Source of the DNA: an uncultured Candidatus Babeliaceae bacterium
Lineage (GTDB): Bacteria > Babelota > Babeliae > Babelales > Babelaceae
NCBI GenBank assembly: GCA_963704655.1
Contig: OY969927.1
Span: 832,001 to 896,000, forward strand
Length of the DNA stretch: 64,000 nucleotides
Reading direction: 5' to 3'
Positions 7,414 through 23,137 of the stretch are shown here, piece by piece (the first letter of the stretch is position 1; every line of letters starts with the position of its first letter). The notes beneath the pieces were generated by a model, which ran no database searches, had not been told where the DNA came from, and was given only the letters and a program-made list of their open reading frames with translations. The translations under genes were made by a program, and so were the position numbers.

Positions 7414-7728
7414 ATATTATCCCTAAACAATAAATGCAGAGTTTTTATATCTTTCCTATTTAATCATTTAAATGCATTTACAGTCTATAAACGATGAAAT
7501 TATCATGAGAAGCCCTTATAAAAACCCTTGAACAGCTGCAGGCTCTTGGCAAAGATCAACTTTAAGCCTTTTTACGCCATTTATTTTTTATTCAATTTAT
7601 TATATAATAAGCCATATATGTGCCCAGCCTTCGCTTATCCACGCCATCGGGCTTGGTAAGTTATGCCCGGCACAGCCATAGCTTCCAGCTGGATCATCCA
7701 GCTTAAAACAGATATCCTTGATAACAAT

Positions 7729-7805
7729 GTGCCCATAGCTCAGCTGGATAGAGCAACGGATTTCTAATCCGTAGGTCGTAGGTTCGAATCCTACTGGGCA
7801 CACCA
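7729..7805 (+). tRNA. tRNA-Arg (anticodon TCT)
   Basis: Acceptor stem GTGCCCA/TGGGCAC, anticodon arm ACGGA-TTTCTAA-TCCGT, T arm GTAGG-TTCGAAT-CCTAC, encoded CCA; 77 nt. Confidence 0.98.
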
Positions 7806-9260
7806 ATTTCCAGTTTTTGCAGTTTCCATCACCACCCCAAATACGGGTTTAAGCTCCACGTCGATCTTTCCATCATTATAAGAACAGTTGGATGTTAAGA
7901 GCTCAATTATTCTTCTTTTAGCTGCAGCATTTCCATTTTTAAACAGCTCAGCCGCATTTTTCGCAAGTTCGATGATAAAGCGTGCATTTTCAAGATATTG
8001 TGTATCTGCCTTTTGAACAGCCAATAATTTTGTTAGCAGTTCTTCTTTTTCTGCCGACCATTTTTGAGAATTGGTCTTCCAGAATTCTTCACTGATTTTG
8101 CCATCGAGCTTATCTAAATAGACCTGATCGATTCTATTTTGTAATAAGCGTATCTGTTTTTCAAGCTGGGCAACCAAGCTATTATGGTATTCAATTTTGT
8201 CTTTTAAACTTTCACGAATTCCCTGTAAAATTATCTCTTGGTTTTCACTGGATACGTATAGGTTATCAACTATTATCGTAAATTGTTCTTCGATAGCTTC
8301 CTGTCGTATATATTCTTTCTTGCAGTTTCCTTTTGAAGTCGTGCAATAGTAATAAATATACTTATCCTTTTTAAGATCAGCTGTGAGCATACAGCCACAT
8401 TTGCTGCATTTTATAAGATTGGTGTAGGGAAATATCCCTTTCTTTGACTTGCTTTTACGTGGATTAAGAAGAACTTCCTGAACGCGTTGAAAGAGCTCCT
8501 TGCTCACCAATGGTTCATGGGAAGCATTTTCATATTTTTTGCCATTCCAGTAAAAAACACCCGTATAGAATTCATTTTTAAGGATAGTTTCAACTTTGCT
8601 GGTGTAGAAGTTTTTGCCATTACGATAAACCATCCCATCAGCTAACATCTTCTTGCGCAAAGACAGAAGAGAGTATGATCCAGTAGCATACAGTTCAAAC
8701 ATTTTCTTAACATATGGTGCTGTCTGTGGATCTACTAAGATGACCTTTTTGTCGCCTTTAAAGGTGTTAATATAACCATAAGGAGCTGTTGAAGGGTATG
8801 TTCCTTGAGCTGCTTTTTCAGTCATGCCTTTTTTAACTTCTTCTGATAGATTATCAATGTGATTTTTAGCCATAAGTGCTTTGATTCCAAAAATGAATTT
8901 CTCATTAGAACGTGCTTCTTTGCTAAGTATTACGTTCTCTTTAACAAGATGAATCCTTATATCACAGTCTTGTACGAGACGTTCCAGTAAGGCGTAATCG
9001 AACATGTTTCGTAAAAGTCGATCTGTTTTTTCTACTAAAAGATGCTTAACTGATCTGTTTTCATCAAAGAAAGCGAGCATTTTATTAAATTCTGTACGCC
9101 CAGCCTTTTTTGCAGTTTCTGCGTTAGCAAATTCTTTTACAATCGTATAATTGTTTTTAGCGGCATATTCATGTAGAACTTTAAGCTGCGCAGGGATCGA
9201 GAAACCTTCGACTTCTTGGTCTTTTGATGAAACTCGGGCGTAGATGACGGCTTTATTCAT
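7791..9260 (-). CDS. Large serine recombinase (integrase)
   Basis: YARVSS catalytic motif, DRLLRN, APYGY, zinc ribbon CSKCG..YYYC..C, coiled coil; 3' end overlaps the tRNA antisense. Confidence 0.96.
   Translation of the reverse strand: MNKAVIYARVSSKDQEVEGFSIPAQLKVLHEYAAKNNYTIVKEFANAETAKKAGRTEFNKMLAFFDENRSVKHLLVEKTDRLLRNMFDYALLERLVQDCDIRIHLVKENVILSKEARSNEKFIFGIKALMAKNHIDNLSEEVKKGMTEKAAQGTYPSTAPYGYINTFKGDKKVILVDPQTAPYVKKMFELYATGSYSLLSLRKKMLADGMVYRNGKNFYTSKVETILKNEFYTGVFYWNGKKYENASHEPLVSKELFQRVQEVLLNPRKSKSKKGIFPYTNLIKCSKCGCMLTADLKKDKYIYYYCTTSKGNCKKEYIRQEAIEEQFTIIVDNLYVSSENQEIILQGIRESLKDKIEYHNSLVAQLEKQIRLLQNRIDQVYLDKLDGKISEEFWKTNSQKWSAEKEELLTKLLAVQKADTQYLENARFIIELAKNAAELFKNGNAAAKRRIIELLTSNCSYNDGKIDVELKPVFGVVMETAKTGNWCAQ
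7796..7805 (+). repeat. att core, tRNA-proximal junction
   Basis: GGGCACACCA, the last 10 nt of the tRNA. Confidence 0.8.
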
Positions 9261-9288
9261 GATGCCTTTTCCGGATGCGTGTGAAATT

Positions 9289-9714
9289 TTATTTTTGTTT
9301 TGTTTTCATCCAAATAGCTACAATAGCACCTAACGCCAAAAATGTTAGCCCAAGTAAATCATTATTCGTGCTTTGCCTTTGGATTTGAGCTTGCTCTAGA
9401 TGTATTTGTTGCCGATAAGCCCTTTCTTCTTGCTGAAGTCGTTCTTGGTGAGCGATCTCTTCCTGCCGCAATCGTTCTTGGCGGGCAATTTCTTCTTGTT
9501 GCAGCTGCTGTTGATAGGCTATTTCTTGCAATTTTTGTTGGTGCATTAATTCTAATAGTTCGCGTTGTGCGGCCATTTCTCTTTGATGAGCTTGTTCAGC
9601 AGTCTTTTGGCGAGCAAGAGCCTCGAGAGCCTCGCCAATCCCTTTGCCTAGTGCGCTGCCAAAACGCGCTCCCGTACTTTCTGTCGGAGTAAATCCATTA
9701 GAAAAATTTGTCAT
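9289..9714 (-). CDS. Coiled-coil protein with Gly-rich N-terminus and C-terminal TM helix
   Basis: FGSALGKGIGEAL; 11-aa repeats of QEEIARQERL type; hydrophobic C-terminus. Confidence 0.75.
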   Translation of the reverse strand: MTNFSNGFTPTESTGARFGSALGKGIGEALEALARQKTAEQAHQREMAAQRELLELMHQQKLQEIAYQQQLQQEEIARQERLRQEEIAHQERLQQEERAYRQQIHLEQAQIQRQSTNNDLLGLTFLALGAIVAIWMKTKQK

Positions 9715-9737
9715 TATATTTCTTTATATTATTTTAA

Positions 9738-9932
9738 TTAGCTTCTTGAATAAGAATTGACGTATTTATACCCATTACTTGGCTTAAAATAACCTTTGGT
9801 ACTTTTAGTTTTAATCCTGCCTGTAGATTTGCTAACTTTTCCAAAGCCATCATACATAGCCTTCTTTGAAAGTAATTGAGTGGTTGAAATAAGGCATATA
9901 ATAGCGAATATTTTTACAAAATAGTGTTTCAT
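9738..9932 (-). CDS. Small basic secreted protein
   Basis: Signal peptide; KGYFKPSNGYKYVNSYSRS resembles the GYxRxxGxYVxxxxRS motif of small mobile-element proteins. Confidence 0.65.
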   Translation of the reverse strand: MKHYFVKIFAIICLISTTQLLSKKAMYDGFGKVSKSTGRIKTKSTKGYFKPSNGYKYVNSYSRS

Positions 9933-9962
9933 TTGGGTTTTTTCGATTATTGACAGATATTG

Positions 9963-10145
9963 TTATTCTTTTGATTCGACTTCTTTTTCATACAACAGAC
10001 GAATGCCTTCGCAAATAATTGTAGATCGGTCCGTTTTATTGCGATCACGTAGGCGCTTAATGAAGATCTCATCTAAGAGGTGTTCATCGGTTAACGACAT
10101 ATAAACGGTAGTTTTTGCCTTTTTTGGAACTTCCGATTCTTGCAT
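9963..10145 (-). CDS. Putative ribbon-helix-helix DNA-binding protein
   Basis: KTTVYMS strand followed by two helices (RSTIICEGIRLL); AAGGA RBS. Confidence 0.65.
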   Translation of the reverse strand: MQESEVPKKAKTTVYMSLTDEHLLDEIFIKRLRDRNKTDRSTIICEGIRLLYEKEVESKE

Positions 10146-10328
10146 ATTTTTCCTTAAATAATGAATTTTCTCTTATCTATAATGGCTCAATTAGAGAAAG
10201 ACGTCAAGTAATTAAACAAGTTAAATGCAAAAACTACTTTACATTATGTCATTTTTTGATAATTTTATAATAAGAAATAAATAATATAGCTTAATTAACA
10301 AAATCCAAAGATTATTGGGGAGGATATT

Positions 10329-12812
10329 TTGTCTACTATTGAAATTGGGATTGATTTAGGAACCACAAATTCCTCTATCGCGGTCATTCAACAAAATGCG
10401 GTACAGGGCATTAAAAATGCTTCAGGGGAAGAAAGTACCCCTTCTGTCATCTACGCTGATAAAAATGGAAACATTGTTGTCGGGTCGAGAGCGAAGAGAA
10501 TTATGAATAATTCCAAAGAAAACCTGCAAAATAGCAAGGCCGAAATCAAGCGTTTGATGGGTACAGCAGAGACTATTTTTTTCCCCAACTTGAATAAAAA
10601 AATGCTTCCCGAAGAAATTTCGGCAGAAATTCTGAAAGTACTTATAAATGATGCTAAGAGGAAGTACCCAGGGCTGCTTTTAGATGCGGCTGTGATTACG
10701 GTCCCTGCTTATTTTTCTACTGTGCAATCTGAGGCGACGAAAAGAGCTGGAGTTTTAGCGGGTTTGAGGCAAGTAGTTCTTCTTCAGGAACCAATTGCCG
10801 CAGCAATCGCATATGGTTTTCTTAATCAGAAGAACGAAAATTGGCTTGTATATGACCTAGGTGGCGGTACTTTTGATGTTGCTCTCGTAGCATTGCGTGA
10901 TGGATTTCTTACAGTTCTTGCCCATGCGGGAGATAATTTTCTCGGTGGTAAAGACTTCGACGCTGCGATCATACAAAATTTAATTCTTCCATCTCTTTCT
11001 ACCAAAGGTATCGTTTTAGATCCGTCAACTCACTCAGAAATCTTTAGTTACTTGAAAGAACTTGCTGAATTAGCAAAAATTGAACTTACCACGTGCGAAA
11101 GGACAACTATCGATATCGATGTCCAAGTAAATCAAGCCCAGGTCGAGCATTCTATTGAAATAACAAGGACAGATCTGCTGGAAAGCTGCAAACATTTGCT
11201 TGAAAAAACGGTCGACCTTTGCAAGAAGACAATCAGTGACGCCAATGTGGATCCAGCAACAGTTCAAAGAATTGTTCTTGTCGGTGGGCCGACACAAATG
11301 CCAATCTTACAAACTTTTTTGAAAAATTCCTTGCGAATCAATGTAGATGGAGGTTTAGATCCTCTACTAGTGGTTGCAAAAGGTGCTGCTATGTTCGGCA
11401 ATCAAACAGTAATCACTACCCCTGAAGGACAAGGGGATATCGACATATCAAACGTTTCCTGCCAGCTCGAAGTAAATTACAATCCAGTAACATCCGATGA
11501 TGAACAAATTGTCACAGGCAAGGTTTTGCGCATCACTGGTGCATCTCAGCCATATTCAGTTCAGTTTGCAAGCTCTGATGACTCCTTTGCGTCTGAAGAG
11601 ATTCTTATTAAAAATGGCAAATTTATACTGACGCTTCCTACAGGCAAAAAAGGTACATCATATTGGATTTATGTTAAAGACAATGATGGTCAGCTGATTA
11701 CTTCAGCTCCTGAAAGCATTCAAATTAATAGAGGCATTTCTATCATGGGAGCCCCCCTTCCTTATTCAATTGGCGTATCCGTGATTTCTCTTTCTTCCCA
11801 CAAAGGTTATGCTGATCCGACCGAGACAATAGAATTCTTTTTTTCTAAAAATAGCATTTTGCCCCTTAAAGAAAAAAAACGCTTTTATACTCTTGCCGAT
11901 TTAAGAGCAGGATCCTCCGAAAATGCTCTCCCTATTTGCATTTATGAAGGCGAATCTCTTATCACAAATCGAAATACTTTAGTCTGCCATTTGGCAATCA
12001 CAGGAAAAGCAATTTCTAAAGATTTGAAAAGAGGCACCCCGGTCGACATCACAATTGAAGTTAATGAATCAAGAGAGTTGAGTGTGATGGCCTATCTTCC
12101 GGATTCTGATATTACCCTTAATGCAAGAGAAACTTTGTATTTTGATGCTGCTAAAATTGACGAGGTAAAGAAGGATTTTACAGAGCAGGTAACACGCTCA
12201 GAATCCATAGCTGCATCTGCAGGGCCAATAAATGAAACCAATGGCATCAAGAATATGATTAAAGATATTCAATCTACTATCGATGACTCAGGATCAGACT
12301 CAGATCAGCAAAGAAAGGCAGAAAAACAAGTAAAAGACTTGATGATGGCCCTTGATCGAATTGAGGCGAAAACAAAATTTAATAGCAATGTTGCTACTTT
12401 CTGGCAAGAATGCCAGGAGCTCACTGATTATCTGGAAGATTGTAATCCGCCTGATAAACGCACCGAATACGAAGCCACATATAATACTCTTCGTAAAGAA
12501 GGATTAATGGCTATATCTAAAGAAGATGCGATATTATTAGAGCATATTGTTCAAAAATTGAGTCGACTTAATTTCAGATGTGTGTATAACGATGTTCGTT
12601 ATCTGACCTCATGGATTAAAGATTTAATAAAACAGGTGCAGGAAAAGGCCCATCTCCATCCTACTCTTCCAGACTTAATCAACAGAGCCAAAGATGCCCT
12701 AGCTAAATTAAATGTAAAAGAGATGCAGGAGCTTATTCATGCGCTTGATCCATTTACGGAGGAAGAAGGAAAGCATCAGGTTCGATTTGTGAAGTCGGGA
12801 ATTACGTTATGA
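10329..12812 (+). CDS. Atypical Hsp70-family protein (827 aa, not housekeeping DnaK)
   Basis: GIDLGTT, TVPAYF, EPIAAA, YDLGGGTFD, LGGKDFD and LVGG motifs; TTG start with GGAGG RBS; ~110-aa insert before the substrate-binding domain. Confidence 0.95.
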   Translation: MSTIEIGIDLGTTNSSIAVIQQNAVQGIKNASGEESTPSVIYADKNGNIVVGSRAKRIMNNSKENLQNSKAEIKRLMGTAETIFFPNLNKKMLPEEISAEILKVLINDAKRKYPGLLLDAAVITVPAYFSTVQSEATKRAGVLAGLRQVVLLQEPIAAAIAYGFLNQKNENWLVYDLGGGTFDVALVALRDGFLTVLAHAGDNFLGGKDFDAAIIQNLILPSLSTKGIVLDPSTHSEIFSYLKELAELAKIELTTCERTTIDIDVQVNQAQVEHSIEITRTDLLESCKHLLEKTVDLCKKTISDANVDPATVQRIVLVGGPTQMPILQTFLKNSLRINVDGGLDPLLVVAKGAAMFGNQTVITTPEGQGDIDISNVSCQLEVNYNPVTSDDEQIVTGKVLRITGASQPYSVQFASSDDSFASEEILIKNGKFILTLPTGKKGTSYWIYVKDNDGQLITSAPESIQINRGISIMGAPLPYSIGVSVISLSSHKGYADPTETIEFFFSKNSILPLKEKKRFYTLADLRAGSSENALPICIYEGESLITNRNTLVCHLAITGKAISKDLKRGTPVDITIEVNESRELSVMAYLPDSDITLNARETLYFDAAKIDEVKKDFTEQVTRSESIAASAGPINETNGIKNMIKDIQSTIDDSGSDSDQQRKAEKQVKDLMMALDRIEAKTKFNSNVATFWQECQELTDYLEDCNPPDKRTEYEATYNTLRKEGLMAISKEDAILLEHIVQKLSRLNFRCVYNDVRYLTSWIKDLIKQVQEKAHLHPTLPDLINRAKDALAKLNVKEMQELIHALDPFTEEEGKHQVRFVKSGITL

Positions 12813-14626
12813 ACATCCAGCTACCGCAGGTTTTGATTAGAAATTCATTCAATATACTAGGCCTTTCTTCTTCTGCTACTTTAAAGGAAATTAGAAAAAG
12901 AACTCAGCAACTTTTACAACTTGCAAAAATTGAAGAGATGCAAAAGTTTGATGCTGATATCGGGCATGTCTGTGAATTTCGAAATGAGAACGAAGTTCGG
13001 CTTGCAATGGAAAGAACATCGAGCGTCAAGGAACGCCTACGGGAAACCTTTTTTTGGTTCGATGACCATAATATAGAAAATCAGAAAGCCATTGCCCTTA
13101 TTTCGCAAGAGAATTATCGTGAAGCTATAGCTATCCTCGAAAAAACGAATGCTGCAAGCATGGATTGGTTAGAGCATAAGAACTTAGCCCTGGCTTTGAT
13201 TTTCCAAGCCTTTGCTTCCTCGGATCTTAGTAGTTTTAGTCACTCATTAGAGTTATGGAAACGAATCGTAGAGTCTGAAGTTTTTTGGAAGTTCTATGAA
13301 AAAAATTATATGCTTCATGATGAGTTTGGAACGTCTACATTCTTATTTCAGGAATTTAGAAGCTCAATTTACGAATCTTTATCCGCAATGACAGTTTCTT
13401 TCTATCATCAAACTAAAAATCCTGAAGCCATAGGCATTTATTTTTCTGAATTCGGTCAAATAGAAAAATCTATAGACTGTGAGGTTATTCAGCCAATCGT
13501 GACTAAGATTAAAAAAGAAATAGAAGACTTAGAAAAAATAGCTTCAGAATCGAGCAGCGATGCGAGCTTGATAAAGCAGGCTCTAGAAAAAATTCATAAA
13601 TACTTTGTGAAACTGGATCAATTTAAACTCTTCGAATATTCGCCATTAACTATCCTAAAAAATGACTCTGCTGAAAAATTACGATCTATTTCTATTGATA
13701 TCTATAATCAGAGTGAGAATGCTGAGTTAGCCTCATTGTTCCTTGATCAAAGTGCAGAGCTTGCTATTTCTGATGTAATTGTAAGAAAGATTGAGTCTGA
13801 CAAAAAAGTGATAAAAAACAATGAATTATGGGAGGCAATTTCTACCAGGTTCAATCGAATAAAAGAATTAATCGCAGAGAAAAAAATCGAAGAAGCTAAA
13901 AGTGTTTATTACGATTTGGACAATGAACTGGCTAGGCAAAATAACGGGTCATCTAAAGATACTAGAATCGTTCTGCTTATTCGCCTTTGCTATCAATTGA
14001 TGGGGAAGGGACATGAACTTTTCAATAAAAAAAAGTTTGGTATCAAGATTCTTGCGATTGGCGCTTTTTTAAATCGGCAAAATCATAAAGATGCGATACA
14101 TATTTTTGAGTATGTAATTGAAATATTGATGAATAAAATCTCTATATTAAGTTTTATAGATATTTACAATGACAGATCTTATCTCTTAAAAGAAATAGAA
14201 AATATATCAAACTCTCTAGAAAATTGTGAACTTTCTGATTTAATAAATGAACATGAACCGTACTTAAAATCACTAGAAATGTTTGCCGATGGGCAAGAGA
14301 ATGAGGATACGCAAGCTGTAATACATGTGCTAGGTTTTGCCATATACTTTAGCATTTTGTATCGCAGGATTCGTGGTATTATGCAAAGAAAAATGTGGCA
14401 ATGGGTAGCTTGTGGAACGGTAATTGCCTTCTATTTCTTAGTAATTATGAATAATGACAAGTGCGAATCAAAAATTGAGAAAGCTTTAACCTACGAAGAA
14501 AAAAGTATTATTGAATATTTGCAGGAAAATAGCCCGGAAGTACTTAAGAATATTAGAAGGGAGGGTTATTCTGATAAACAGATAGCCCAATATGCTTTAG
14601 ACCAAATAGCGAATGAGAAAAAATGA
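12809..14626 (+). CDS. Degenerate J-domain-like, helical-repeat protein with C-terminal TM segment(s)
   Basis: NSFNILGLSSSATLKEIRKR resembles J-domain helices I-II but has no HPD; hydrophobic WQWVACGTVIAFYFLVIM; ATGA overlap with the Hsp70 gene. Confidence 0.75.
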   Translation: MNIQLPQVLIRNSFNILGLSSSATLKEIRKRTQQLLQLAKIEEMQKFDADIGHVCEFRNENEVRLAMERTSSVKERLRETFFWFDDHNIENQKAIALISQENYREAIAILEKTNAASMDWLEHKNLALALIFQAFASSDLSSFSHSLELWKRIVESEVFWKFYEKNYMLHDEFGTSTFLFQEFRSSIYESLSAMTVSFYHQTKNPEAIGIYFSEFGQIEKSIDCEVIQPIVTKIKKEIEDLEKIASESSSDASLIKQALEKIHKYFVKLDQFKLFEYSPLTILKNDSAEKLRSISIDIYNQSENAELASLFLDQSAELAISDVIVRKIESDKKVIKNNELWEAISTRFNRIKELIAEKKIEEAKSVYYDLDNELARQNNGSSKDTRIVLLIRLCYQLMGKGHELFNKKKFGIKILAIGAFLNRQNHKDAIHIFEYVIEILMNKISILSFIDIYNDRSYLLKEIENISNSLENCELSDLINEHEPYLKSLEMFADGQENEDTQAVIHVLGFAIYFSILYRRIRGIMQRKMWQWVACGTVIAFYFLVIMNNDKCESKIEKALTYEEKSIIEYLQENSPEVLKNIRREGYSDKQIAQYALDQIANEKK

Positions 14627-15696
14627 TAAAATTTGCCAAACCATCATTTCCGCCTGGATGGATTTTGCCTGACGGAGCGAAGATTTTAAAAAGAATCGAT
14701 AAGCAAGAATTTGCTGAAGTGTTTGAGCTGAATACCGGAGAGTATCTTTATTTATTTCATGAAGAAAAAATTGCAAAAAAACTCAAAAGCCGCGGAATTT
14801 CACATGAAATCTATTTTATTAGCGGTGCAAAAGCTATTGGGAAAAAATATTCTGACCATAAAGATGGTGATCTTCCAGAAAGGTTGAAAAATATTATCCA
14901 AAGAAGAGGGCTAGATGCTATTGCAGGTATGACTGCACTTAAGAACACTTTAGTTAGAGATGTTATTCAGCCGTTTCTAAACTGGGAGGCATATGAAAAA
15001 TATGGCGTTACCCCATCTAATGGTATTCTTTTATTCGGCCCTCCTGGTTGCGGTAAAACATTTATAGCAAAAAAACTTGCAGAGGCAATGAAAGCTGAGC
15101 TTATTGAATTGAGCGAGGGAACCGTTGGTAGCCCTTATATTCATGCAACCTCCACAAACATTGTGCAGGCGTTTCAAAAAGCTGCGATGGTAGCTCCATC
15201 TGTACTCTTTGTAGATGAAATTTCAGGATTAATGCCAAGAAGAGATGGACTATCTTCACAAGAGCAATACAGAGAAGCAGAAATCAGCGAATTTTTGATG
15301 CAGATGGAAAGCAGTGTAAAGAATAAAGTCCTAGTAGTTGCAGCAACTAATTTCCCAGAGAAAATCGATCCGGCAATTTTACGTTCTGGGCGAATGGATA
15401 AAAGAATCTTTATCTCACCCCCTGATGCAGAAGCAAGATGCGAATTATTGCACCTGTTTTTAGAAGAAAGACCCATTGATAAAGAAATCGACTTTGAAGA
15501 ACTTGCCAGGATCACAGAAGGGCTAATTTCTTCTGACCTAAAATTAATAGCTAACAATGCTGCCCTGAAGGCGCTACATAAGAATGCATTAATTTCTATG
15601 GAGTTATTAGCAGAAGAAGCTTCACAGTTTAAGCCATCCTTAACTCAAACTGAACTAAATCGATATCGTGAATTCGAAGGCTACAATAGAGGTTAA
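14623..15696 (+). CDS. AAA+ ATPase (classic clade, single module)
   Basis: GPPGCGKT, LFVDE, AATNFPEKIDPAILRSGRMDK second region of homology; ATGA overlap. Confidence 0.95.
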   Translation: MIKFAKPSFPPGWILPDGAKILKRIDKQEFAEVFELNTGEYLYLFHEEKIAKKLKSRGISHEIYFISGAKAIGKKYSDHKDGDLPERLKNIIQRRGLDAIAGMTALKNTLVRDVIQPFLNWEAYEKYGVTPSNGILLFGPPGCGKTFIAKKLAEAMKAELIELSEGTVGSPYIHATSTNIVQAFQKAAMVAPSVLFVDEISGLMPRRDGLSSQEQYREAEISEFLMQMESSVKNKVLVVAATNFPEKIDPAILRSGRMDKRIFISPPDAEARCELLHLFLEERPIDKEIDFEELARITEGLISSDLKLIANNAALKALHKNALISMELLAEEASQFKPSLTQTELNRYREFEGYNRG

Positions 15697-16156
15697 AATC
15701 TTTTTTATTAATAATAACGACGGAGTGCTTCTGCGCATGTTGAAATTTAATGATAACTTTAATTCAGAGGCATTTTAATTCAGACAAAAGTGATAAAGCA
15801 TCTAAAAATCGTTTAAATATACAGCCCAATATTAAGTTAAAATAAATATCTTTTTCGTTATTAAGGCAAAGAACTTAATTATGATAATTTTGTAAATGCT
15901 TTAATACGTTGGTATTTCGTTATTGATATATTGCATAAATCCATCTATACGCGGAGATCTCTTCCTTTTTGGGATTTTGCTTGCATTTCTTTTTAACGAC
16001 AAGATAAGGTAAAAAAATAAATAGAACTTATACACGAGAAGAATAATGGATTATGAAACTCTTCAATCGCTTGCTACCTTTACGTTTTTTTTATCAGTTT
16101 ATAATTGGTTTAAAATATGTAAGTGCAAATGTGAGCGAAAATAAAGAGGTATCAAA

Positions 16157-16378
16157 ATGATGGGCGCTGTTTTAGAAATTCTATCAATGATAGTATTTTT
16201 TTCTGTATTCCCATTAACTTTTTATTTAATTTTCTATGTGGTTACTAAGATTGGAAAAAATAAGATAGTAACAGATGAAAAGACCAACCAACACAATCAA
16301 TTGGTTAACCTGCTTCAAACGATTATCTGGCTCCTAATTGTTTGCATAGTGCTTTTAATTACTCGATGGCACTATTAG
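16157..16378 (+). CDS. Small two-TM membrane protein
   Basis: GAGG RBS; two hydrophobic segments. Confidence 0.65.
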   Translation: MMGAVLEILSMIVFFSVFPLTFYLIFYVVTKIGKNKIVTDEKTNQHNQLVNLLQTIIWLLIVCIVLLITRWHY

Positions 16379-16414
16379 ATTTTTCTTTACTCAATCTCGC
16401 TGTATGGCACTTCA

Positions 16415-16816
16415 TCACATATATTTTGGGATTTCTACAACAACAACTTTGGTTTCCCCTTTATTTTCTGATTTATCCCTTAAGTTCATCAACCACTTAC
16501 GATATTTGGGGTCATACAAAGGCATTGTATGCAGAACTATCTGCTTATCTAACACCCCTTCTTGAGCAAGGCGTTCACGTCTTGAGCCTATTAATGTTAA
16601 GGCTATATCGTAAGCTTTGGCAAAGTATTCTGAGTTAGCTGGCAAATCATGAAAGATTTTTGGTGACATCATAATGCTAATTGGGAATTCATCTAAGGTA
16701 AGCGCATCTGGGTTCTTCGCCCATTCGGCAAACTCATCTGCCAATTTTTGATACTCTTCTTCACTTGTAGGTGCTGTACGAAATTTGAGCAATTTATTTT
16801 TTTTAGAAGCTGCCAT
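16415..16816 (-). CDS. Putative terminase small subunit-like protein
   Basis: 133 aa; helical/HTH-like N-terminal half, 'YFAKAYDIA' helix, terminal beta strand KVVVVEIP; coupled to the HGG gene. Family call is by resemblance only. Confidence 0.5.
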   Translation of the reverse strand: MAASKKNKLLKFRTAPTSEEEYQKLADEFAEWAKNPDALTLDEFPISIMMSPKIFHDLPANSEYFAKAYDIALTLIGSRRERLAQEGVLDKQIVLHTMPLYDPKYRKWLMNLRDKSENKGETKVVVVEIPKYM

Positions 16817-17069
16817 ATGATATCTCCTGGCTATAGATTAAATCTTTTAGTGTTCTGTGGCTTTTTCGTATCTCGCTAATTAAGCTACGGTTATGTGTCC
16901 GTTCCGCCTTTGCAACTTTGGTTTTATGGCCATGCTTTTTGGGTATCGCTCCCCCATGGTAATAGCATCTGCCATTTTTCATAGCTGCTTGACGGCACGA
17001 TAAACCGAAATTACTTCTTGCTTTAGCACCGCATCTTGGAAGCGATTTAAAATTCATCTTGAAGCGCAT
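16803..17069 (-). CDS. HGGxSTG-domain protein
   Basis: PRCGAKAR...CRQAAMKNGRCYYHGG motif. Confidence 0.85.
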   Translation of the reverse strand: MRFKMNFKSLPRCGAKARSNFGLSCRQAAMKNGRCYYHGGAIPKKHGHKTKVAKAERTHNRSLISEIRKSHRTLKDLIYSQEISYGSF

Positions 17070-17152
17070 AAAATATCTTTCGTAACTGTTTTATATGAAA
17101 ACGACGAGAATTTTTTCTCGTCGTTATAAAGCTATTTTAGAATGTATAAAAA

Positions 17153-17500
17153 TTATTCTCCCAACAAACCGTGATCTTTGAGCTCTTTAATAGCATCAGG
17201 AGAGTCTTGCAAAAGCGTTTGAATTAATTGCGGTTTTCTCATTTGCATCATTGTCGCCATCATAGGATTTTTAAGATACTGGCTATAATCATATAATGCC
17301 AATTCAACTGCATTGCTAACGCCTAAAGCTTCCTTTTGTTGCCCAGCCAAGTTTTTAACAATGTCTGTTTTTTCAATAAAATGGTCAAAGCCAGCTTGTT
17401 GTAATCGAGCTGTTAAGACCTTAGCTTCTGGTAAAGTTATCAAAACTGCTTGAAGCGAAGCTCCAGTAACTAGTAAACTTAAAAACAAAAGTTTTTTCAT
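17153..17500 (-). CDS. Small secreted hypothetical protein (moron-like insert)
   Basis: Likely start MKKLLFLSLL at 17500 with AAGGA RBS; hairpin downstream at ~17099-17126. Confidence 0.75.
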   Translation of the reverse strand: MKKLLFLSLLVTGASLQAVLITLPEAKVLTARLQQAGFDHFIEKTDIVKNLAGQQKEALGVSNAVELALYDYSQYLKNPMMATMMQMRKPQLIQTLLQDSPDAIKELKDHGLLGE

Positions 17501-17591
17501 AATATTCCTTTGTAGATTGGTTTGTTTTAATTTAAGACTTTCTAAAGAAATTATAGAATGAATACCAAAAAATATCAAAGAAGCGCATGGG

Positions 17592-18044
17592 CTATTCTCC
17601 ATTTTTAGATTTGCCCCCTACTTGAACCATCGCATTAAGCACAGCGTTGCCCTCAGAATGCACGTTGTAGTTAACGTTAATAGTTTGACTCTTGCCACGG
17701 TACTGTTGAAGTGTATTAAGAGCCTGGTGGCTAAGTCTTATCATCATCATTCCCTGCCCTATAATGTTGTAATTATCTTCTTCAATAATGGACATGGCCT
17801 TTAAGTGAAGCGCGACATATTGTGCAGCAAGTATAGACTCAACAGTATCTTTGGGATTAATACCTCGTATTAAGGCAATAACCGCATCAACATCCTTTGC
17901 TGAAGGATCATAAATAGACGGGCCATAGATCATGAGCATTGCACGATTTACAAGCAGCCTTGCCGCATCTTGATTATCGCAGTTTATAGCTTCAACAAGA
18001 AGTGAAATTTGACTTGGCAACGATATTTTTTTTGTTTTCGCCAT
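17592..18044 (-). CDS. Conserved mobile-element protein of the type usually found upstream of HGGxSTG genes
   Basis: PKDTVESILAAQ..ALH and QTINVNYNVHSEGNAV motifs. Confidence 0.7.
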   Translation of the reverse strand: MAKTKKISLPSQISLLVEAINCDNQDAARLLVNRAMLMIYGPSIYDPSAKDVDAVIALIRGINPKDTVESILAAQYVALHLKAMSIIEEDNYNIIGQGMMMIRLSHQALNTLQQYRGKSQTINVNYNVHSEGNAVLNAMVQVGGKSKNGE

Positions 18045-18055
18045 GGATATTCCTC

Positions 18056-18287
18056 GGTTGAAAGGTTGAACGACTTCATTATCATGTTCAAATTATAATT
18101 CTAGCTCTAGGTCGATGGATTGCTGTCGATAAAAGGCTTGGTTGAAGGGTTGATAAATCTTATTACTCATTTTAAGTATCGATCTTGATCAACCCTTCAG
18201 TTTTAATTATTCATTATTAAATAAATATAGCCTATAGGATGTTTTTTAGGTTGAAACTACATTTCAACTTTTTTCAACAACTTCAAC
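18056..18287. repeat. Iteron-like direct and inverted repeats (putative origin)
   Basis: GGTTGA(A) at 18056, 18064, 18140, 18148, 18249; inverted TTCAAC at 18263, 18273, 18282; 12-bp inverted repeat 18143-18154/18188-18199. Confidence 0.6.
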
Positions 18288-19949
18288 TATTACAGGTTTA
18301 TAGATCCAATCCTTTCGGTGCTCTTTTTTTTCAAAAGTTACTCTACCACTGTCGATTAAAGTTTGAAAAATATACTCATATTCTTTAGAACCACCCTTCA
18401 ACTTTTTTGAGGTAATAATTTGCGCCCACGTAACAGGTCTTTTTGAAGCAGCAGCCCATTTGCAAAGAGCTTCATGCATTATACGGCACTTCCGTTCATG
18501 CTCAGACTCTCCCAATTCTCCCTCAAAAAGCTGAATTGTGGACTGTATAGCGCGATGCAAGATCGCAAAAGCAGCCCAGAGGGCTTCCTCGCTTATATCT
18601 TTTGTAGTCGGATCTATAAAAAGCTGTATGATCATTGCTAACTTTAAAAGATACGGACTCCATCTTTTTAAGTATGGGTCTAAGATTTCTCGACTTCGGT
18701 CGCTATAAGCTTTTGGCATATCATTGATTTTTTTATGCATCGCTTCAAATACTGCTTTTGCAGAGCCTGCAAGAGGATTGAAGACGTAATTGTCACTTAT
18801 CGCATCTAAAACATCCATTATTTCTGCTTCAATTTCATGATCCGTTTTTTCTGTGTGGGCAGGCAAAGCAGGTGGAACTTCTTCTTGATGAGGTGGCGTA
18901 AAAATCAAAAAGCGGGCGAAAAATCCACTAGGGATATCCGTTATTTTAAGGTTATCTTGAATCCAAGGTAAAGTAGAAACGCCACATATGGAAAAGCAAG
19001 GGCGTTCTAATATACAATCGCCCTGTGTTTTGGTTTTATATCTATAAGATGGTGGAACATCATAAAGTTCGGTGAATATAGCTTTTAAATCATTATTATG
19101 GTTTTTATCAAAATTTTGTAACCATGCTCCAAATTCACTGGCAAGAATAACTCCTTGATGCCCTTGGCTTAGATGTTCGAGTAGGGCCTCTGCTGTCATT
19201 TTATTAGGCAAAATGACGTCTTGTCTTGAAATCGCAAGTATATCTTCCTCGATCATTTTTTTTTCTTTTGGATCTATTGTTATGCGGAGTGATGCATGTA
19301 ACTTTTTGATCTGATCAGTTATGATTTTATTTTTTACCCAAGCAAGGTTGGCCCCTTTATTAAGTGCCGTGCTCTTAAATTGTCCGCTTTTTGTGATGGA
19401 TAGTATCCATAAGTTAGGAAAAAGAGTTTGAAAATATGGGTATGAAACACGCTTTCCTAAAATAGCAGAGATTGTAGCCATCACAGACATTGTTATCATT
19501 ATTGGGTGCGCATTTGTTGTTTCGCAAATAGAGAGTATATAAGTACTGAGTGGAGGCGGTAGAAGCGATGGAGTAAAACCTTCGCAAGGATCGTCTTTTT
19601 TTTGACCAACCACAGACAATTTCTCGAGCTCTAAAGGTAGAAGATCATTCAAGCCGGCTTTGTCACAGAGTGAGTTAAATTCGGCTTGTTCATTTTCATT
19701 TAGCGGATGCGAATCATAAGTATACTCAGCGCCATCGCCCCAGTACATACATGTTAAGGATTCTTGATTATTTCTTAACGTAACTGATGCCATATACATA
19801 GCTGGTTTATTATAAGGTTGGGCTATATATTCGTAAGTATTACCATCTGGTGTGATCGGTCCATCTATGGCCAGATCATGTTCAGCCATATGTTGTCGAC
19901 ATTCTTCAAATAAATTACGTTTTTTTATGATATAATTAAGATTATTCAT
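18264..19949 (-). CDS. DUF3987/YfjI-like replication protein (helicase-like)
   Basis: NLWILSITKSGQFKST (Walker A-like), TAEAL, SEFG, SICGVST, SGFFARF motifs. Confidence 0.8.
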   Translation of the reverse strand: MNNLNYIIKKRNLFEECRQHMAEHDLAIDGPITPDGNTYEYIAQPYNKPAMYMASVTLRNNQESLTCMYWGDGAEYTYDSHPLNENEQAEFNSLCDKAGLNDLLPLELEKLSVVGQKKDDPCEGFTPSLLPPPLSTYILSICETTNAHPIMITMSVMATISAILGKRVSYPYFQTLFPNLWILSITKSGQFKSTALNKGANLAWVKNKIITDQIKKLHASLRITIDPKEKKMIEEDILAISRQDVILPNKMTAEALLEHLSQGHQGVILASEFGAWLQNFDKNHNNDLKAIFTELYDVPPSYRYKTKTQGDCILERPCFSICGVSTLPWIQDNLKITDIPSGFFARFLIFTPPHQEEVPPALPAHTEKTDHEIEAEIMDVLDAISDNYVFNPLAGSAKAVFEAMHKKINDMPKAYSDRSREILDPYLKRWSPYLLKLAMIIQLFIDPTTKDISEEALWAAFAILHRAIQSTIQLFEGELGESEHERKCRIMHEALCKWAAASKRPVTWAQIITSKKLKGGSKEYEYIFQTLIDSGRVTFEKKEHRKDWIYKPVIVEVVEKS

Positions 19950-20011
19950 TAAAATCTCTTTTCGATTGAGGCCATCTTGGCATATGGTGGCCTTATTTTG
20001 TTATGGATATG

Positions 20012-20278
20012 TCAATTTCTAACAATTTCTTCAAACTTTGAAACCACCTCCCTCTCTATATGTTCCGCTACTTCTTTATTAATTGGGTAAAAAACATTGA
20101 GTCCTCCAGTGTGGTACTTTCTGGTCGGGTAAGTTAATCGGTATCCGCCACGAGGGCGAGTGAAGATACCTATCGCACTCATATAAAAACAGTCATTTAA
20201 AATGAAGCTTGCGAATCCTACTAAGCCATTTTGGGGTTTAACAGGTGTGATCCGGATATTGTTGATTTGATATTGCAT
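20012..20278 (-). CDS. SpoVG-family nucleic-acid-binding protein
   Basis: INNIRITPV...GLVGFASFILNDCF...I...YPTRK...FYPINKE pattern. Confidence 0.8.
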   Translation of the reverse strand: MQYQINNIRITPVKPQNGLVGFASFILNDCFYMSAIGIFTRPRGGYRLTYPTRKYHTGGLNVFYPINKEVAEHIEREVVSKFEEIVRN

Positions 20279-20426
20279 ACGTTTTTCCTTTATTTACTTT
20301 TTGTTTTTGATCAAGTTCCATTAATGCTATAAACAGATCTGCAAGTTGCTTGCGCTCATCTGCTGATATCGGCTGTGTTCCTCGTGGAGGAATATGAATT
20401 TGCATTTTTAAGGATTTTTTAATCAT
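20238..20426 (-). CDS. Small hypothetical protein
   Basis: First ORF of the leftward replication operon, overlapping the SpoVG start. Confidence 0.5.
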   Translation of the reverse strand: MIKKSLKMQIHIPPRGTQPISADERKQLADLFIALMELDQKQKVNKGKTYAISNQQYPDHTC

Positions 20427-20447
20427 GGGGCTATTGTAACCCCATAT

Positions 20448-20479
20448 GTTAGGCCTAAATTAGGTCTAACTAGACTTAA
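20448..20479. promoter_or_regulatory. Putative operator array
   Basis: TTAGGCCTAA / TTAGGTCTAA / CTAGACTTAA; the first two form a near-perfect inverted repeat. Confidence 0.5.
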
Positions 20480-20580
20480 TCCACAAAGCGTTGAATCGTG
20501 CGTGTGTGAAGGTATTTAAAGAAATTGTAATGATGGCTATAGCTAAGAAAACTTTAATTTTAGCCCAAAAAGTATCGAAT

Positions 20581-21756
20581 TTAAGGAAGATATATGGGAT
20601 TAATACGAACAAAAGACATATCAAAATCAAGAAAATCTTTTAAACCGCATTCTGCGAATAGTTTCTGATTTATGTGCACACAAGCATCGTACATTGCCTG
20701 CATACCATCATCTTCAGGAGCTGTTCCGACAATATCTTCATACAAATTTTTAAAATAGCGAGGCAGATTTCTGTTGTTATATTTTCCTGAGAGATCTTCG
20801 AGTATTTTTCCAGGGTATCCATAAGCAGATCTGGGGTTTTTATTAGATTTTTTTTTATCCATTAATGCGAAGTTACGAAATTTTGCTATTTTCCCTTGAC
20901 ATGAGAAATATCTCTTTTTAGGACAATAACTCCAATCTGTGATTTTAGTTTGCGGAATAGACATGGCGTGAATCAGCCTTTTTTGAGCATAAAGATGTAA
21001 CTGCTGCATATACATTTTAAAATAGCGTGGATTAAATCCTTGCTCGGGGAATTGAGTATCTTTTGTTGGGCCTATGGCCCGATTAAGAGCATTGTTGCGA
21101 ACGGTCAAGGTAAGGTCATAAATAGGGTGTTGCTTATGCGCAATGGCTTTTCGCTCTTTATGCTGTTTTTGATCGTAAATCCAGAGAAAGTCTGTGAGGT
21201 TATCAAGAACCCACCATTCACGCGTTAGTTTTATACGATTAAAATGGTTATTTTCCTCAGACAACTCATCTGTATTGATATCAAATGTTATAGGTTGCTG
21301 AAGATTAGCCTCGTCGATCCTAGCATGTTGCCGTATAAAAGGACGATGATCTACTCTTGTGTCTCGTAACAAGAACTTAAAAATATTTATTAATATCGTT
21401 AGTTGCATGAAAAAAGCTACAACAGAAAGATCTTGTTTGATCCAAGGCAGCGAATTAATAATATTTGGATCATTTATATTTTTTTCCTTGATGTAAGCTT
21501 GCAGACTCTTACAGATTGACGAAGTTTTTCTAAATAACTTTTTCAGCAGAGAATTGAGTGGAGCAAAATCACCATGTCTGCTATTCCATATCTCGTTGGC
21601 TATTGGAACGAGTACTGGATCGGTTATGAATAATTGAGTAAACCTAGCAATTTTTGGGGCTGAAATTTCGATACTGTCGACATCCATGTATTCGCAAAGT
21701 ACGCCTAATTCCTCTAGAAGTATCTTTTCTGGGTTCATATTATTCTTGATATACAA
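20581..21756 (-). CDS. Hypothetical protein, possible C-terminal winged-helix domain
   Basis: 391-aa ORF; C-terminus 'AMYDACVHINQKL...FVRINP' resembles a wHTH recognition helix and wing. Confidence 0.65.
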   Translation of the reverse strand: MYIKNNMNPEKILLEELGVLCEYMDVDSIEISAPKIARFTQLFITDPVLVPIANEIWNSRHGDFAPLNSLLKKLFRKTSSICKSLQAYIKEKNINDPNIINSLPWIKQDLSVVAFFMQLTILINIFKFLLRDTRVDHRPFIRQHARIDEANLQQPITFDINTDELSEENNHFNRIKLTREWWVLDNLTDFLWIYDQKQHKERKAIAHKQHPIYDLTLTVRNNALNRAIGPTKDTQFPEQGFNPRYFKMYMQQLHLYAQKRLIHAMSIPQTKITDWSYCPKKRYFSCQGKIAKFRNFALMDKKKSNKNPRSAYGYPGKILEDLSGKYNNRNLPRYFKNLYEDIVGTAPEDDGMQAMYDACVHINQKLFAECGLKDFLDFDMSFVRINPIYLP

Positions 21757-21950
21757 CTTTTATGGTTTTACATTTTTAATTTCAACAAAAAGGATACAGT
21801 ATATTTTGATCTAACACATAATTTATTTGCAGAAAATCATCAGGTTTTGCCGTTAGCAGCAATTATTTTTTTAAGCTATTGCTGGTAGGAACAGACGAAT
21901 GGCGTAGATTATGCTATTTTCTATAAAAGAGTTGGTGAAATATTCCGATA

Positions 21951-21960
21951 GGGCACACCA
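21951..21960 (+). repeat. att core, distal junction
   Basis: Second GGGCACACCA, just beyond the last element gene. Confidence 0.8.
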
Positions 21961-22180
21961 TCCTGCGCCTATTCCAGCCGTCGCTGCCATGCAGCTGTGG
22001 CGGACAGGCCAGGCCAATTCACAGCCGAAGTGTGACAAAGCCTTGGCAGAGACGTATTGGCAAGCTACGCCAGACATGGTAATCTTAAAATAAACTCAAT
22101 TTTGTTGTTTTTAAGATAAAGCGCTCAGCGCACCATGCAGCTTATCTTCAGAAACAACTTTCATTAAATCGGTAAAAACT

Positions 22181-23137
22181 ATGAATATCCATAAAAAGGC
22201 TATAATATTTTTTTCTTTTATAATCTATCTCGGTACAGCTTCAAGGCTTTTATCTTATAATGAAGATTCTTGCTATGCATTACATCGCTTGGTTGACCGA
22301 CTTGAAGACACTCCAGAATCCGTCAAAATTCTGCGGCCAATTGTTCATAATTTTATAAAGCAAATAGATGGCGATCCAAATATCATGCTTTATACCGGTC
22401 ATGGCAGTAAGTTTTATTTAGGTGGGGCTCTTATGCAGGCCATCAAAAAAAACAAGATCCATTTGGCTTATCTTCTTGCAGAGTGTCAACCAGACTATGA
22501 CGTACGTGGCAATAATGATGATGGCTGCGAATTGAACATACTGCATTTTTGTGCTAAATATTTGCCCAATTCAGATCAATCAGTGGCATTGATTAATCAT
22601 ATAATGACTCACAGCAACTTAAAAGTTATGATGGAGTTGCTTACAGATAGTAAGCGATGGCAAAGAGCAGAGATTATACTTCCAGTTGATCTTGCAGAAA
22701 AATACCATAATGATAAAATTGCAGCGTACTTTAGAAAAGGAAAAACTATGCTGTTCGGTTATACTATTATATATGTTCAAAATGTCGAAGAAACCCTTCA
22801 ATTTTATCAAAAAGCTTTTTCTTGTAAAATAAAATTTTTCGCTGAAAGTAAACTTTATGGCGAGCTTGAAACAGGCACAACCATTTTGGCATTTTGTGAT
22901 GAATCATTCTGTATGAAAAATGGGTTGGAGTTTACCAAAAATAGATCAAACACAACTTGCGCAGGCTTTGAAATCGGGTTCATGGCCGATGATGTTCATG
23001 CAGCATATAAACTTGCTATTGCACAAGGTGCACAACCATTAAAAGAGCCTGCTCAAAAGCCGTGGGGACAGATTGTAGCATATATTAAAGACCTTAATGG
23101 TATTATTATCGAAATCTGCAATCCGATAAATTATTAA
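22181..23137 (+). CDS. Ankyrin-like secreted domain fused to a VOC/glyoxalase domain
   Basis: NILHFCAK and PVDLAEK (Ank-like); YTIIYVQNVEETLQFYQKAF...KPWGQIVAYIKDLNG (VOC); internal AGGA RBS and in-frame ATG at 22748. Confidence 0.8.
   Translation: MNIHKKAIIFFSFIIYLGTASRLLSYNEDSCYALHRLVDRLEDTPESVKILRPIVHNFIKQIDGDPNIMLYTGHGSKFYLGGALMQAIKKNKIHLAYLLAECQPDYDVRGNNDDGCELNILHFCAKYLPNSDQSVALINHIMTHSNLKVMMELLTDSKRWQRAEIILPVDLAEKYHNDKIAAYFRKGKTMLFGYTIIYVQNVEETLQFYQKAFSCKIKFFAESKLYGELETGTTILAFCDESFCMKNGLEFTKNRSNTTCAGFEIGFMADDVHAAYKLAIAQGAQPLKEPAQKPWGQIVAYIKDLNGIIIEICNPINY

Follow-up and report, generated by a model that had tools for sequence, protein, structure and literature searches.

A serine-integrase island with two small-terminase-related genes in the phylum Dependentiae: a candidate family of PICI-like phage satellites

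The 64-kb window analysed here, that is, the whole stretch of 64,000 nucleotides taken from the genome of an uncultured Candidatus Babeliaceae bacterium (contig OY969927.1, positions 832,001 to 896,000), contains an island inserted at a tRNA-Arg(TCT) gene. We give a probability of about 0.55 to the reading that this island belongs to a family of integrative, self-replicating phage satellites resembling the phage-inducible chromosomal islands (PICIs), whose packaging, induction and helper phage we infer from gene content. A phage satellite had already been proposed in the initial annotation of this DNA, and the proposal was supported by the relation of one island gene to phage small terminases (TerS), by searches that returned no relaxase or virion module and, in addition, by a second, overlapping gene related to a small-terminase domain; all three results come from homology and synteny. 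The host genome is a single contig of 1,298,077 bp, with an estimated completeness of 96%, and close homologues of the window proteins come from sources labelled Candidatus Babeliaceae, Babeliales or Dependentiae. From these names and the lifestyle of the phylum, as far as it is set out in PMC6561590, the intracellular host that had been thought probable is a reasonable assumption. The open reading frames (ORFs) of the proposed leftward gene run were all recovered (8 of 8), every one on the minus strand. The features that carry the argument are as follows.

16415..16816, minus strand: small-terminase-like protein of 133 amino acids (aa), GP3_package-like class, from fold, protein atlas and synteny
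16803..17069, minus strand: HGG zinc-ribbon protein, 88 aa, overlapping the start of the TerS-like gene by 14 nt
17153..17602, minus strand: ORF of 149 aa with a hydrophobic N-terminal segment, between partner150 and the HGG gene
17592..18044, minus strand: partner150, a conserved protein of 150 aa, first gene of the trio partner150-HGG-TerS
18056..18254, no strand: putative origin with GGTTGA iterons and an adjacent AT-rich stretch, directly 3' of rep
18264..19949, minus strand: Rep, a DUF3987 helicase-type initiator of 561 aa (PF13148, 4.8e-23; phrog_3022 'DNA primase', 7.6e-23)
7729..7805, plus strand: tRNA-Arg(TCT), predicted by ARAGORN, the last 10 nt of which (7796-7805) are the left copy of the attachment core
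7791..9260, minus strand: large serine integrase, 489 aa, whose last codons overlap the 3' end of the tRNA gene
21951..21960, plus strand: right 10-nt copy of the attachment core, a sequence match to the tRNA end

The protein encoded at 16415..16816 gave no match of its own in Pfam (E <= 0.01), PHROGs, NCBIfam or PADLOC. Five kinds of evidence, namely the fold, a viral structure library, the matches of family members to hidden Markov models (HMMs), a protein atlas and synteny, argue for a remote homology to small terminases. Its AlphaFold model (predicted local distance difference test, pLDDT, 72.7) consists of six helices, and in a VIA-align comparison with 48,161 chains the small terminases Sf6 gp1 (rank 2, Z 6.2, root-mean-square deviation (rmsd) 3.3, 88 residues aligned) and P22 gp3 (rank 3, Z 5.6, rmsd 3.2, 87 residues aligned) came directly after a helical segment of condensin (rank 1, rmsd 5.8), with just seven chains at Z >= 5. 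Two uncharacterised Caudovirales proteins in BFVD matched the model (E 2e-4 and 6e-4), and seven rows at ranks 4-35 of the same search were named small terminase or DNA-packaging protein. In the protein atlas, the nearest clusters were viral and contained GP3_package (PF16677) in 22% and 60% of their members, with scores of 0.96 and 0.95. A six-sequence profile collected 1,603 cluster representatives of the family at E <= 0.001 among 1.84 billion, and when 150 family members were scanned, two matched PF16677 (1.6e-4 or weaker) and three matched TerS PHROGs. Since the window protein matches no family model and the member matches are weak, we call it GP3-like and not a member of PF16677. Other named matches among the 150 members were a weak transposase helix-turn-helix and a DnaG-type primase zinc finger; the protein with the latter (CHC2, Pfam 4.5e-21), which also matches phage DNA-primase PHROGs, looks like a primase fusion. 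No match was found in cultured phage records by tblastn with the window protein and one phage homologue.

The family occurs in 30 of the 261 genomes of the phylum, and homologues were also found in five phage loci (two IMG/VR phage contigs and three contigs from Dependentiae bins). In all five, the homologue lies after RusA and before the large terminase TerL (phrog_2) and the portal gene (phrog_156); the ORFs that separate it from TerL differ from locus to locus, leaving the homologue as the only conserved small gene there. Fold ranks, viral atlas clusters and phage synteny thus bear out the TerS relation first proposed for this gene. Contigs G191:C5 (35,546 bp) and G240:C3 (39,032 bp) are collinear, one being circularly permuted with respect to the other; they have a G+C content of 39%, no terminal repeat and no integrase match, and encode TerL proteins 67-76% identical to that of an IMG/VR phage. 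Erf, RusA, TerS-like, TerL, portal and tail-fibre genes were recognised in the candidate Dependentiae phages (L084+L095+L096 on G191:C5, L085+L097+L098 on G240:C3, L083, L037 and L038). In 13 of the 261 genomes phrog_2 was matched strongly (E <= 2e-18); the many weaker matches (E above about 1e-8), most of which fell on ORFs of about 730 aa, were left out of the terminase count.

The gene overlapping the TerS-like start had been named for the HGGxSTG domain, a label that stood in part. Its product scored 25.8 bits against NCBIfam NF041373 (HGGxSTG), below the cut-off of 29, with the motif HGGAIP where the domain name has HGGxSTG; in a profile-profile comparison (hhalign), the island HGG profile matched the N-termini of phage small terminases at 99.0% (E 7.4e-18). 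A pattern scan of IMG/VR with the alignment of the island proteins gave 145 relatives, of which 80 loci were kept, and in these viral proteins the domain is mostly the N-terminus of a chain of 167-250 aa. At E <= 1e-10, 32 of the 54 distinct viral HGG ORFs matched phrog_1889 or phrog_509, both of them families of small terminases. Of 43 next ORFs of at least 300 aa, 29 were TerL, 11 were portal, one was a head-tail adaptor and two were unassigned. BLASTP paired residues 13-68 of the window protein with 12-68 of a phage TerS of 195 aa, at 44% identity (E 9e-11); the HGG profile retrieved nothing from the PDB. The HGG protein is, by these alignments, a stand-alone homologue of the N-terminal domain of the phrog_1889/phrog_509 small terminases, and the likely role of the HGGxSTG domain would be that of a DNA-binding N-terminus in a class of small terminases. 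No paper naming HGGxSTG was found in our literature search.

We also considered whether the HGG and TerS-like genes are one HGG-type TerS split in two, and rejected this, as the TerS-like profile matched the C-terminal parts of HGG-type small terminases at 0.1%. Because the HGG protein matches one TerS class and the TerS-like protein another, the overlapping genes appear to join a stand-alone DNA-binding-type domain with a TerS of a different class. The homology of the HGG gene to a small-terminase N-terminal domain gives the satellite reading support that is independent of the TerS-like gene.

These two genes are accompanied by partner150, and the ordered trio partner150-HGG-TerS was found at 12 places in 11 Dependentiae genomes by a local HMM survey of the examined loci, and in none of the five phage loci. 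Next to it are serine integrases that sit at tRNA genes, together with primase/helicase modules that are interchangeable; two metagenome contigs with the trio duplicate islands of the G002 and G141 types. When 30 TerS-like sequences were placed in a maximum-likelihood tree (ORFs shorter than 110 aa and duplicates dropped; midpoint-rooted for drawing only), 10 of the 11 trio copies fell into one group of 15 with a support of 92/91 and no phage copy, and four of the five phage copies fell into the other half, together with Rep-adjacent copies that have no trio. Because the trio copies group apart from those of phages, the trio-type TerS looks like a long-standing resident of the islands. The conservation noted at the outset for partner150 was seen again, with 93% identity in the genome G002. 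Its 230 relatives are all unnamed or 'hypothetical', with Dependentiae metagenome-assembled genomes (MAGs) as the named sources, and it had no match in Pfam, PHROGs, NCBIfam, PADLOC or PDB, while its atlas clusters are unnamed; designer-PPR rows in the PDB search were spurious (0 matched stretches). As a pure guess, partner150 might be an interference or specificity factor. The 149-aa ORF was found only in the window's own locus in the family survey and had no match in Pfam, PHROGs, NCBIfam or PADLOC.

A small IMG/VR contig predicted to be viral and coming from a different organism (L102; 14,245 bp, 48% G+C) carries side by side a TerS-like ORF, a TerL match to the C-terminal half only, a weak partner150-like match and a short HGG ORF of 86 aa. 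This contig is possibly a satellite-like relative of the islands from beyond the Dependentiae.

The limits of the island could be placed from a short repeat. The last 10 nt of the tRNA gene recur a single time, at 21951..21960, giving an element of 14,165 bp in agreement with the 14 kb first estimated; by our own estimate, a given 10-mer would recur by chance within about 15 kb roughly once per 70 loci. In a genome of the same genus (G003) the same tRNA gene is unoccupied, with no integrase behind it, and the sequence that follows it is the same as that after the right repeat of the window at 8 of 9 bases. The island is therefore taken to extend from about 7796 to 21960, with the glyoxalase-like and Sel1 genes to its right outside it. 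The integrase had been called a serine integrase, which the domains confirm: Resolvase (PF00239, 2.7e-24), Recombinase (PF07508, 1.4e-19) and Zn_ribbon_recom (PF13408, 1.4e-08) were all matched above their cut-offs in Pfam, and phrog_95 (integrase) at 3.7e-78 in PHROGs. With the catalytic domain, the Recombinase domain and the zinc beta-ribbon all present, it is a large serine recombinase.

Two other genomes of the genus carry an integrase behind tRNA-Arg(TCT), 73% (G004) and 63% (G002) identical to that of the window, so this tRNA gene is a recurrent target; in two others no integrase follows it. Serine integrases 63-73% identical to the window's lie at the same 3' end in the loci L033 (G004:C81), L034 (G002:C15) and L087 (G194:C2). 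Across the related loci, the genes that serine integrases overlap or adjoin at the 3' end are those of tRNA-Arg (three anticodons), tRNA-Gln and tRNA-Asp. An exact 10-nt repeat of the tRNA end was found in four of the 13 related loci in which a tRNA gene stands beside a serine integrase, within the sequence examined, and bounds elements of 14,165 (the window), 13,481, 10,825 and 10,690 bp. These tRNA-targeting serine integrases make up a family whose shared cores, the 10-nt repeats, are very short. At one locus (L025) the integrase is split into two ORFs. The G141 island has a second element immediately upstream (L021:27-1969, G141:C7), with a Toprim/zinc-ribbon primase and a D5-like helicase fragment, and a further TerS-like copy was found in it (G141:C7:40599-41033), which suggests tandem arrays of such elements.

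The replication module was likewise recognised as first described, with a DUF3987-like Rep and an iteron cluster. Six of the 33 GGTTGA matches of the window fall in 18056..18254, as two direct pairs (18056/18064 and 18140/18148), one inverted copy (18189) and a single further copy (18249). At the same position in L021 and L027, where Rep is 50-56% identical, clusters of RGTTGA hold 11 of 25 and 10 of 26 matches, respectively, and no such cluster was seen in islands with other replication genes. Motif and position are thus kept with the Rep type, as would be expected of putative Rep-binding iterons. Close relatives of Rep were not found by pattern scan of genome contigs; a search of the phylum genomes found relatives in 12 of 260 other genomes. 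At eight of ten loci examined these are proteins of 763-811 aa with Toprim_3 and DUF3987 in one ORF; at L029 DUF3987 alone exceeds the threshold, and at L027 (G002) rep is split into two ORFs. Residues 11-80 and 117-554 of the window Rep align with residues 24-99 and 367-802 of the L021 protein, so that about 265 residues are missing, the Toprim primase domain among them, a loss on which the initial annotation was silent. The window Rep is helicase-only; it may need another primase or be degenerating, and because of the Toprim loss this copy of the island may replicate poorly. Related islands interchange three replication modules: Toprim-DUF3987, a DnaG-type primase with a D5-type primase/helicase, and phrog_239 (DNA primase/helicase).

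The internal deletion of Rep at Toprim, the split rep of G002 and the split integrase of L025 are what one would expect of a decayed prophage in which the structural genes were lost while those for integration, replication and the small terminase survived. Structural remains were looked for in the island and in its relatives. The island had been described as having no structural, TerL, lysis or conjugation genes, and the searches agree, with no capsid, portal, TerL, tail, lysis or relaxase family matched by any of 21 ORFs in Pfam and PHROGs, or by 20 of them in NCBIfam and PADLOC. Relaxase or virion modules in related elements had been named as evidence against a satellite; no capsid, portal, large-terminase, tail, holin, relaxase or type IV secretion system (T4SS) match was found in Pfam for 183 of the 215 ORFs of ten related loci, and virion genes had no clear match among 59 of the 86 ORFs of seven more loci in PHROGs, which holds few relaxase families, relaxases being tested in the Pfam set only. 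Two PHROG rows from related loci, a 183-aa collagen-repeat ORF on 'collagen like minor tail' and a NUDIX protein partly matching 'portal', were read as artefacts. The lack of any clear structural gene or fragment in these scans makes a prophage remnant improbable, as does the compact layout of 10.7-14.2 kb between intact repeats, which was seen in at least 11 genomes belonging to several families. The grouping of the island TerS copies apart from those of phages also speaks against it, and phages of this TerS family have no serine integrase in the sequence examined.

The same searches bear on whether the island could be an integrative mobilisable element that relies on a conjugative system from outside it. 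Many small islands with an integrase at a tRNA gene can be mobilised, and several window ORFs have no family assignment. No relaxase, coupling-protein or T4SS match was obtained in the window or the ten related loci in Pfam, however, and the sole FtsK-family match is the full-length chromosomal FtsK, outside any island. As the conserved module is, moreover, terminase-related, we regard mobilisation as very improbable indeed.

The layout that the initial annotation had compared with PICIs (size, int, rep, ori and terS) agrees with the account of PICIs in PMC10085698; it also remarked that they mostly use tyrosine integrases; a serine integrase is not unprecedented in satellites. Five core components are listed there: an integrase, an alpA/merR/stl regulator, a primase-replicase, a capsid-morphogenesis gene and a small terminase; in PICIs, accessory genes are described as lying close to terS, and structural and lysis genes as lacking (PMC10085698). 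Three of these components were found in the window (integrase, primase-replicase with an adjacent putative origin, though without the Toprim part, and small terminase by remote homology), and a regulator was not. A capsid-morphogenesis or packaging-interference gene had no match in Pfam or PHROGs, and partner150 or the 149-aa ORF could fill this role. Three of five is the class treated as ambiguous in PMC10085698, where tyrosine and serine recombinases serve as the example of components treated as exchangeable. With three components present and one not, we call the element PICI-like in its working and refrain from classifying it as a PICI.

As in PICIs, including the Staphylococcus aureus pathogenicity islands (SaPIs), the islands measure 10-15 kb, have the integrase at one end and a primase/replicase followed by an iteron origin, and carry a small-terminase homologue that would redirect packaging, with accessory genes beside terS and no tail, holin, portal, head-tail connector or capsid genes. 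Unlike PICIs, they use a large serine instead of a tyrosine integrase and hold two terminase-related genes (the stand-alone HGG gene and the GP3-like TerS) with a conserved partner. The host phylum differs as well, more than 99.9% of the detected PICIs being in Proteobacteria or Firmicutes in the account of PMC10085698.

Serine recombinases are reported for PICI-like elements (PLEs) and for some particle-derived marine virion-encapsidated integrative mobile elements (VEIMEs), and some of these elements also have TerS homologues and primase/helicases, as the islands do (PMC9618062). VEIMEs are defined from particles in that source, whereas the island is known from its genes alone. PLEs, compared by description, differ in their size of about 18 kb, in being confined to V. 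cholerae and in sharing no marker gene that we saw. They use a RepA_N-type initiator. P4 alpha-type primase-helicases join primase and helicase, as do the Toprim and DUF3987-type relatives of the window Rep. The islands also resemble P4 satellites in reaching about one third of the candidate helper genome (0.3-0.4 of the length of the candidate helper contigs, a ratio that proves nothing). This proportion recalls the pairs of P4 with P2 and of SaPIs with their helpers. Unlike P4, which has no TerS, the island has a TerS-like gene, and the P4 markers Psu, Delta, Sid, Epsilon and AlpA had no match in the window in Pfam or PHROGs.

Tycheposons, which occur in Prochlorococcus and other marine bacteria, target tRNA genes with tyrosine or, in a minority, large serine recombinases, carry primase/helicase genes and are enriched in vesicles, and some of them are PICI-like with terS (as described in bioRxiv 10.1101/2020.12.28.424599). 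The islands share with the PICI-like ones the tRNA targeting with a partial tRNA repeat, the swapped primase/helicase modules and tRNA-Arg(TCT) among the targets, as far as that source describes them. Compared by description, they differ in always having a large serine recombinase at the tRNA end, in a repeat of only 10 nt and in having no capsid gene. What is new in the islands is the phylum, the consistent use of serine integrases at tRNA 3' ends and the partner150-HGG-TerS module.

Another explanation is that the island is an integrative replicative genomic island independent of phages, a cryptic tRNA-targeting element like the cargo-carrying tycheposons (bioRxiv 10.1101/2020.12.28.424599), in which the TerS-like and HGG proteins would serve as DNA-binding factors in excision, replication or regulation, and which would spread by vesicles, transformation or other means. 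In favour of this are the integration and replication modules, which are the best-supported parts of the island, the varying cargo and swapped replication modules of its relatives, the example of the vesicle-enriched tycheposons and the lack of a helper phage in the window genome. Set against this are two adjacent genes homologous to different classes of phage small terminases, the preservation of TerS-like and HGG as an operon at 12 places, and the fact that phages from bins of the same phylum have a member of this TerS family in their packaging region. Small terminases are not known to have a role outside packaging. We hold a phage-independent island to be unlikely, while giving it more weight than a prophage remnant.

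Several observations count against the satellite reading itself. No match to TerL_ATPase, Terminase_6N, Phage_capsid, Phage_portal or phrog_2 was obtained in the window genome, for which no resident helper is known, and the host assignment of the phage contigs depends on their presence in MAG bins. No AlpA, MerR, Stl, capsid-morphogenesis or Ppi homologue was recognised in the window in Pfam, PHROGs or NCBIfam. As to TerS, the fold matches at Z of about 6 are below the tool's own safe level for helical proteins; Foldseek against the PDB placed Sf6 TerS in its top three rows, but at E 1.2-1.4 and with none at E <= 0.001; and the TerS-like sequence profiles retrieved no meaningful relative from the PDB. 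The window protein is 24-31% identical to the phage copies, which lie 0.5-4.3 kb from TerL with unrelated ORFs between and are not adjacent to it, and whose own TerS role is deduced, so that they could be, for example, late regulators. With the Toprim-less Rep of the window and the split Rep of G002, some copies may be decaying. Finally, excision, induction and packaging are deduced from the genes.

If the island is a satellite, its cycle might be as follows. Infection by a helper resembling the 35-39 kb phages with the order RusA-TerS-TerL-portal in Dependentiae bins would trigger the island; the integrase would excise it, perhaps with the conserved 60-aa protein; and Rep would melt the iteron origin, from which the island would replicate. 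A ring of the island TerS, with the HGG zinc ribbon as an added DNA-recognition module, would then recruit the large terminase of the phage to island DNA, and concatemers of the island would be packaged into phage-made particles. Hsp70-like and AAA+ genes would be accessory cargo in the usual cargo position of satellites. The remaining features of the island are given below.

9289..9932, minus strand: two small ORFs, one of 141 aa, Q/E-rich and with a hydrophobic helix at its C-terminus, the other of 64 aa with such a helix at its N-terminus; no family match
9963..10145, minus strand: conserved small protein of 60 aa, directly upstream of the integrase in related islands
10329..16378, plus strand: accessory cargo (Pfam, PADLOC), comprising an Hsp70-like protein of 827 aa, an unknown protein of 605 aa, an AAA+ ATPase of 357 aa and a two-helix membrane ORF of 73 aa
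20012..20278, minus strand: SpoVG-like protein, 88 aa, a divergent island paralogue (PF04026, 2.2e-10)
20238..20426, minus strand: ORF of 62 aa, upstream of SpoVG, with copies 43-50% identical in L027, L029 and L087
20581..21756, minus strand: protein of 391 aa, first gene of the leftward run, with modelled N-terminal helical bundles and a possible C-terminal winged helix

The 60-aa protein has copies 62-80% identical beside integrases that are only about 31% identical to that of the window, and it matched no family and no PDB entry. By its sequence pattern it is possibly a ribbon-helix-helix protein. It is a candidate regulator or directionality factor; in L086 and L090, a gene of phrog_66 ('excisionase and transcriptional regulator') stands beside the integrase where the window has this ORF. 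Of the cargo, the Hsp70-like protein matched HSP70 at 2.3e-84 in the N-terminal ATPase domain only, and the ATPase matched AAA at 7.9e-33 in Pfam and an IetA-like family at 2.9e-33 in PADLOC, being well under the NCBIfam IteA cut-off. The whole cargo is absent from the closest related island (L027). Together with the 605-aa protein, the Hsp70-like protein and the ATPase are possibly a new defence system, lying in the usual position of satellite cargo. In other related islands the cargo includes PD-(D/E)XK and GIY-YIG nucleases, RelE, ankyrin/RING, Sel1, GNAT and beta-lactamase-fold proteins.

The SpoVG gene had been correctly named (40.9 bits against a cut-off of 29.6), and a SpoVG-like gene is kept upstream of rep in related islands. 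These island copies are divergent (about 1e-10), compared with about 1e-34 for the canonical chromosomal SpoVG, which lies directly beside the targeted tRNA-Gln in L022:6535-6825, L030:2029-2295 and others. The 62-aa ORF upstream had no match in Pfam, PHROGs, NCBIfam or PADLOC. For the 391-aa protein, the label of a regulator with a winged helix-turn-helix was not confirmed. The helix-helix-helix-strand-strand motif at residues 309-379 was modelled at a pLDDT of only about 50-64, with no fold match covering it, while the confident N-terminal helical bundles resembled generic four-helix bundles (Avd, HEPN; Z <= 7.5). It had no match in Pfam, PHROGs, NCBIfam or PADLOC, and has two close homologues only, plus a loose set of positional counterparts. 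At its position L026:15535-16761, L030:4099-5157 and L088:14860-15978 encode a tyrosine recombinase, giving these islands two recombinases with the serine integrase at the tRNA end. The idea that the 391-aa protein is a degenerate tyrosine recombinase was dropped, as the recombinase-bearing proteins of L026 and L030 gave a poor alignment with the other eight.

Contigs identical to parts of the island (window 7300-22500) were found at a depth of about 2-4x in four metagenome DNA runs from three studies; the labels of these runs are soil, marine, freshwater sediment and lake water. Either a wide distribution of the strain or a common origin of the runs would account for this. These contigs are short and of low depth and include no island junctions, which makes them too sparse to bear on excision or circles.

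Dependentiae are obligate intracellular parasites of protists, and the phage satellite reading suggests, tentatively, a parasitism on three levels, in which tailed phages of 35-39 kb in these bacteria are in turn exploited by satellites of 10.7-14.2 kb. On this extended and more doubtful picture, the satellites would insert by serine recombinases at the last 10 nt of tRNA genes and redirect packaging by a new two-part small terminase, made of the HGG protein and a GP3-like ring, with the phylum-specific partner150 assisting as an interference or specificity factor. No paper on satellites or phages of Dependentiae was found among the matches listed in our literature search. If the reading is right, the islands would be the first candidate satellites for this phylum, and the associated contigs a candidate phage lineage, and PICI-like biology would extend to a reduced intracellular lineage. 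For integrase biology, the family would offer serine integrases that target tRNA 3' ends with a core of 10 nt. The split or dual arrangement of the small terminase, in turn, suggests a mechanism that is directly testable.

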